Shown: positions 20,809-20,843 of the stretch, one piece after another | Numbering within the stretch: the stretch's first letter is position 1 | Layout of the letters: each line of letters starts with the position of its first letter | From: Negaprion brevirostris | Lineage: Eukaryota | DNA length: 64,000 nucleotides | Reading direction: 5' to 3' | Assembly: GCA_030324005.1 (NCBI GenBank) | Contig: JARDVH010000042.1 | Span: 88,906,692 to 88,970,691 of the forward strand | Translations under genes and position numbers: made by a program | Notes under the pieces: generated by a model | What the model saw: the letters and a program-made list of their open reading frames with translations, nothing else | The model's database searches: none | Told to the model about the DNA's origin: nothing

Positions 20809-20843
20809 CACAAGCTTTCGGAGCACTGCTCCTTCATCAGGTG
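20809..20843 (-). ncRNA. Minimal type I hammerhead ribozyme motif (apparently intact)
   Basis: CAC CUGAUGA A GGAGC agu GCUCC GAAA GCUU GUG: both catalytic boxes, 5-bp stem II, stem I CAC/GUG, palindromic AGCU for a dimeric stem III. Confidence 0.8.

Follow-up and report, generated by a model that had tools for sequence, protein, structure and literature searches.

A Penelope-family minimal hammerhead motif in a truncated stub of Negaprion brevirostris, likely inert at its locus

Introduction

Minimal hammerhead motifs of Penelope-like elements (PLEs) have been reported to show no cleavage as monomers and low cleavage as dimers (Cervera and De la Pena 2014, PMC4209133), and a review (PMC6765202) agrees that monomers are inactive and dimers weak. 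Such motifs in Neptune elements of fish, and dual motifs on opposite strands, have already been reported (PMC4209133). Neptune and Nematis elements have a CX2-5CxxC linker, and an inverted truncated copy and an optional one-sided tail of 30-40 bp have been described for PLEs, in a study that calls the in vivo role of PLE hammerheads unclear (Craig et al. 2021, PMC8557442). The ribozyme of PAc, a Poseidon element of Anolis, cuts only with the element's protein; its dominant template is uncut RNA, and RNA-seq ends at the cut site were not found (Frangieh et al. 2024, PMC11167929). Finally, non-LTR retrozymes with PLE-derived type I hammerheads have been described in one chondrichthyan genome (Li, Clavereau and Pollet 2026, bioRxiv 10.64898/2026.07.22.740005). 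The portions of PMC4209133 that were searched mention cartilaginous fish nowhere by name, and our literature search found no paper on PLE hammerhead motifs in sharks, for which the preprint's supplements may list such families.

Here we describe such a motif in a 64,000-nucleotide stretch of the Negaprion brevirostris genome (assembly GCA_030324005.1, contig JARDVH010000042.1, positions 88,906,692 to 88,970,691, forward strand), called the window below.

Results

An earlier note on this DNA had read a minimal type I hammerhead on the minus strand of a Penelope pLTR, and this reading is borne out letter by letter at 20843-20809, with core, stems and pLTR placement all in agreement. Every core position is filled, as C3-U4-G5-A6-N7-G8-A9 ... 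G12-A13-A14-A15.1 ... U16.1-H17 (Table 1), and the motif has G10.1-C11.1 and the palindromic helix III word AGCU (15.2-16.2). The extra A after A9, AGCU as the putative pairing word and a predicted cut after U17, here between 20812 and 20811, had also been named and agree with the sequence. So does the description of the plus-strand sister as keeping stem II paired, its pairs being A-U, G-C, G-U, G-C and C-G. In the sister, G10.1-C11.1 has become A10.1-U11.1 and the helix III word is AGUU, the palindrome AGCU being lost via C16.2U; its self-duplex is predicted at +3.8 kcal/mol, versus -2.5 kcal/mol for the left motif. A minimal-hammerhead descriptor gave three matches in the 225,846 non-N bases of the window and its neighbourhood, all in pLTR copies (the left motif, the sister and one further copy), and a mean of 0.03 matches in 30 Markov-1 shuffles. 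The Infernal search that the earlier note had proposed came back empty: the Rfam hammerhead covariance models had no match to the motif, either at the gathering score or at E<=10, which we infer to be a limit of these models for motifs without helix III. A 6-bp distal extension of stem I, seen by eye between the stretch lying 5' of the motif and a stretch 3' of AATAAA, was dropped because its 5' side varies between subfamilies and its 3' side does not.

Table 1. Positions in the window of the element, its surroundings and the two hammerhead motifs
Feature	Positions	Strand	Remarks
Host repeat around the element, decayed 3' part of a high-copy LINE	20370-22110	+	limits approximate
Target-site duplication, left copy	20706-20717	+	12 bp
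Inverted 5'-truncated pLTR with tail	20718-20921	-	tail about 40 nt, about 20718-20757
Left motif, stem I 5' arm	20843-20841	-	
Left motif, CUGAUGA	20840-20834	-	
Left motif, extra A (between 9 and 10.1)	20833	-	
Left motif, stem II arms	20832-20828 and 20824-20820	-	5 bp, 3-nt loop between
Left motif, G12-A13-A14-A15.1	20819-20816	-	
Left motif, G15.2-C16.2-U16.1-U17	20815-20812	-	
Left motif, stem I 3' arm	20811-20809	-	stem I of 3 bp
C-terminal fragment of GIY-YIG-like endonuclease ORF (presumed)	20922-21209	+	ends at natural stop
3' pLTR, sense, without tail	21210-21505	+	AATAAA at 21460-21465
Sister motif, partly decayed	21419-21453	+	G10.1A, C11.1U, C16.2U, common 10.3 G variant
Target-site duplication, right copy	21506-21517	+	12 bp, 1 mismatch at a CpG

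The element is a 788-bp Penelope-like stub (20718-21505) inserted between 12-bp duplicated words. Its two pLTRs form a 159-nt inverted repeat with 87% identity, the left with a tail of about 40 nt and the right with none; the pLTRs, the inverted truncated copy and the optional tail are those of an EN+ Penelope-like element. The ORF fragment, which we take to be GIY-YIG-like from motifs read by eye in sister copies, had no match in Pfam; it contains one in-frame stop and an altered YIG-type motif, and is 76% identical to sister copy L033 over 76 aa. Sister copies, read by eye, show a CX4CxxC linker, a C..C ahead of the YIG motif and histidines downstream, candidates for the CCHH of a C-terminal GIY-YIG endonuclease. 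The CX2-5CxxC linker ahead of the endonuclease is present in sister copies L033, L036, L059 and L009; the stub begins downstream of it. The host repeat around the element is presumably a CR1-type LINE. It had no Pfam match and was recognized by very high summed contig depth, contig joints that skip the insert and LINE-like reading frames. In all four runs there are contigs that skip the insert, passing directly from about 20711-20717 to 21514-21535, so that uninterrupted copies of the host repeat exist. The unique flanks are covered, with 0-3% difference, by contigs from runs that carry the codes of three organisms, and among the listed pieces none bridges an element junction. Among 252 ORFs of at least 62 aa, Pfam found no host-gene domain, a scan that short exons would escape, and gave two sub-threshold matches, a likely spurious YgbA_NO and an RT_RNaseH. 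The latter (33037-33312, minus strand, E 0.0095, below the cut-off) is likely a decayed piece of an LTR retrotransposon.

The pLTRs show some further details. AATAAA, placed 10 nt 3' of the predicted cut, occurs in 75 of 101 copies; in the left copy the site (about 20796-20801, minus strand) is lost by A>G at 20798. The tail (about 20735-20760, minus strand) has a pyrimidine-rich run that closes with CAG and looks like a 3' splice site. Directly past this CAG, several copies terminate in CATG, and the site may be an intron end and the start of the element's ORF. Two further pLTR fragments without a hammerhead lie in the window at 8244-8288 and 29289-29370, the second being a very short fold-back made from the 3' end and carrying a tail.

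The motif belongs to a large family. The exact 35-mer occurs 132 times in the 2.69-Gb genome, and matches to a relaxed intact pattern number 3,674, each with zero occurrences in the reversed control, counts that reflect few independent master lineages. Copies of the pLTR end number 49 in 1 Mb sampled, or about 130,000 by extrapolation with related subfamilies counted in. The earlier note had listed a lack of conservation across genomic copies, together with absent cleavage, as evidence against its reading; conservation is found. From 131 anchored copies, 101 motifs could be parsed (the remaining 30 being truncated, containing N or low-scoring), and their core is 93-100% conserved except at the CpG-linked G12. 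Variation is found at N7 (U75/C20/A6), in loop II and at H17, where U occurs in 60, A in 31, C in 9 and G in 1; part of this U17 may reflect CpG decay of C17. Genome-wide, G17 is found 87 times versus the 3,674 relaxed-intact motifs, which fits the NUH rule. The extra A between 9 and 10.1 is present in 99 of the 101 and the palindrome at 15.2-16.2 in 81. The family also has two forms that differ by a 7-nt near-tandem duplication immediately 3' of the motif, with stem I kept in both, and its loop II ranges from 2 to 7 nt, differing by subfamily.

For covariation, 82 different 35-mers whose loop has 3 nt were scored against 500 shuffles. With relatedness uncorrected, 15 cells changed on both sides versus 8.0 in shuffles (reached in 0/500); the covariation score was reached in 2/500, and further pair types, in 61/500, were not above shuffles. 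The signal is clearest at pair 10.3-11.3 (A-U 48, G-U 24, G-C 5). Such stem covariation in the aligned copies is suggestive only. Because the core is conserved, N7, loop II and H17 are variable, G17 is rare and stem II shows some covariation, the sequences point to a hammerhead once under selection in source elements.

C11.1-G12 is a CpG. One-strand decay yields C11.1U with a G-U pair retained; decay of the opposite strand yields G12A, through which the general base of the hammerhead, G12, is lost. Otherwise intact motifs comprise 2,081 intact ones, 1,593 with the tolerated C11.1U and 1,428 (28%) with the inactivating G12A. The tolerated change exceeds the inactivating one by 12% (p=0.003), a small excess for which there are several possible causes: the context of mutation, variants among the masters, or weak selection. 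When copies were chosen independently of motif likeness, 19 of 72 kept core and stems and 6 of 72 passed a strict test. At the locus itself, the left motif departs from the family majority at 0 of 34 positions, and its flanks do so at 10 of 128 (chance 0.06, Fisher 0.12), in a comparison set biased towards the left copy; the sister departs at 4 of 34 versus 5 of 122. Pooled, the two motifs depart at 4 of 68 positions (5.9%) and the flanks at 15 of 250 (6.0%). We infer that inserted copies decay almost neutrally. The sister's A10.1-U11.1 was considered as a compensatory change and rejected, as U11.1 is not enriched among A10.1 motifs (151 in all; of the 100 listed first, 39 carry it, counted by eye; G10.1 background 43%, p=0.42) and its palindrome is lost; judging by these counts, the A-U pair looks like a coincidence.

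RNA folding was predicted with ViennaRNA, which gives equilibrium structures and ignores kinetics and proteins. The predicted probability of stem II in the left motif is 0.99 alone and 0.90 within its own pLTR; for stem I in the left pLTR alone it is 0.00, with a penalty of 7 kcal/mol. In both 910-nt read-through RNAs, stem II is predicted with probability 0.00, also when the RNA ends 17-18 nt past the motif, and forcing the hammerhead fold is predicted to cost 54 and 58 kcal/mol. The pLTRs point apart, so that the antisense arm is transcribed first in either direction, and in read-through RNA this antisense twin pLTR is predicted to sequester the motif. A transcript started between the two pLTRs would escape the duplex. 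The earlier suggestion of a potential self-cleaving site in a host transcript of either direction is therefore unsupported. Its suggestion that the palindrome is used in a dimer stands only in part: AGCU is present in the left motif, but the sister has AGUU and the motifs lie on opposite strands, so that no cis dimer is possible at the locus. Of the neighbouring motif pairs in the retrieved loci, 6 have both members on one strand and 20 have them on opposite strands; the 6 indicate that loci able to form cis dimers exist elsewhere in the genome.

Start points of stub copies were obtained from 96 anchored hits, 22 of which were removed (N edges or short matches) and 27 of which fell outside -40..+50, leaving 47. 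Ten of the 47 start upstream of the motif at a distance of no more than 6 nt (p=0.003, for an interval set post hoc). At the cut site itself the 47 starts show no peak (3/47 within 2 nt, 2 exact, p=0.48, not above uniform), at a sample size where an effect of a few percent would be missed. A tight pattern finds at least 23 fold-back loci genome-wide, and because their spacers mostly differ, they are likely repeated independent events and not one replicating family. In 10-kb stretches near the window, the fold-backs L070:1158-1378 and L079:6411-6661 each consist of two head-to-head pLTR ends with a hammerhead in each. Where both arms were mapped, fold-back elements measure about 210-250 bp, with the turn about 10-20 nt upstream of the motif.

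Discussion

In this study we characterize a motif that is very probably a passenger, a Penelope-family minimal hammerhead carried in a truncated stub. It is likely inert where it lies, because a partner on its own strand is missing and a long duplex with the antisense twin pLTR is predicted to enclose it. Family conservation and the literature suggest that in active tandem source elements the motif would have been a weak ribozyme assisted by dimerization or by protein, in which helix III may form between the palindromic A15.1-G-C-U16.1 words of two copies, with the cut after H17. The arrangement of the sequence shows that retrotransposition left an ORF end, a pLTR and an inverted truncated pLTR with tail in a LINE, with a 12-bp duplication. 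Since both pLTRs extend across the cut site, the template was likely uncleaved RNA. The copy has since drifted, at rates that can be counted and in a manner that appears neutral, with the left motif staying intact likely by chance, and read-through RNA would form an imperfect duplex of about 160 bp instead of a ribozyme.

The most serious alternative, which we nevertheless consider improbable, is that the motif is active at this locus, in a transcript that begins at a promoter inside the pLTR or in a processed fragment free of the antisense arm, and cuts after U17 by forming a trans dimer with RNA of another copy or with the help of the element's protein. The left motif is fully intact, thousands of intact partner copies exist, and protein-assisted cleavage has been shown for the anole PLE (PMC11167929). 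However, its helix III duplex would have just 4 bp, with the self-duplex energy given above, and stem I has 3 bp and is not predicted to form in the left pLTR alone. The cleavage triplet also differs from GUC, which is reported as the most effective, and the anole study detected no RNA-seq ends where its ribozyme cuts. It is far less probable that the host keeps the motif as a regulatory cut site in one of its own transcripts. The sole point in favour of host retention is the identity of the left motif with the family majority, at the chance level of 0.06, but the sister has decayed, the pooled motifs change at the flank rate, C11.1U and G12A decay is near-symmetric genome-wide, sequestration is predicted in read-through RNA, and the ORFs scanned are without a host-gene domain, short exons being missed in such a scan. 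A chance look-alike, or conservation merely as part of a young repeat, is the least probable of all, since despite the Rfam miss and the few master lineages behind the counts, matches are hardly expected in shuffles, the variable places are N7, loop II and H17, with G17 avoided, and all four extra features listed for PLE minimal hammerheads are present.

The locus itself matters little, since the motif is a described one and intact copies of it number in the thousands. What is of wider use is that the paired CpG count (C11.1U versus G12A) provides a simple genome-wide test, by which PLE hammerheads are seen to decay almost neutrally once inserted. In read-through RNA, an inverted pair of pLTRs is predicted to shut down the ribozymes it carries, and such self-silencing may be part of the reason why hosts tolerate so many copies. 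With a family this large, the genome is a good test bed for the in vivo role of PLE hammerheads. In this respect we speculate, as a tentative and rather doubtful idea, that the ribozyme marks a working boundary in the family's retrotransposition template, since starts favour the motif's 5' edge and at least 23 fold-backs turn just upstream of it. If this were true, the excess of C11.1U would represent re-amplification of cleavage-competent templates, and the genome would have kept a fossil record of PLE hammerhead action in vivo.

Compared with the described systems, the locus is closest to the minimal hammerheads of PMC4209133. It shares with them the type I core, the extra nucleotide between 9 and 10.1, G10.1-C11.1 and the palindromic 15.2-16.2, as well as the location in a pLTR, thousands of dispersed copies and dual opposite-strand motifs 100-700 bp apart; its stems I and II have 3 and 5 bp, whereas those of the Schistosoma families have 4-5 and 7-8 bp. 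The family resembles the Neptune and Nematis EN+ PLEs (PMC8557442) in its putative C-terminal endonuclease, the CX4CxxC linker of sister copies, and the inverted 5'-truncated copy with a tail at a single end. Unlike full elements of these clades, the stub starts past the linker. With PAc (PMC11167929), the family has in common a hammerhead within the pLTR and a tail delimited by two alternative 3' ends, its copies ending near query position 163 or 201; the clade is a different one, and PAc was assayed as an active element whereas the copy here is a truncated stub. With the non-LTR retrozymes (bioRxiv 10.64898/2026.07.22.740005) it shares a PLE-derived type I hammerhead, but those consist of units repeated in tandem, head to tail, with two or more motifs on the same strand, and the locus, an inverted pair, falls outside that definition. 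The locus thus adds a member to the described kind of PLE minimal hammerheads.
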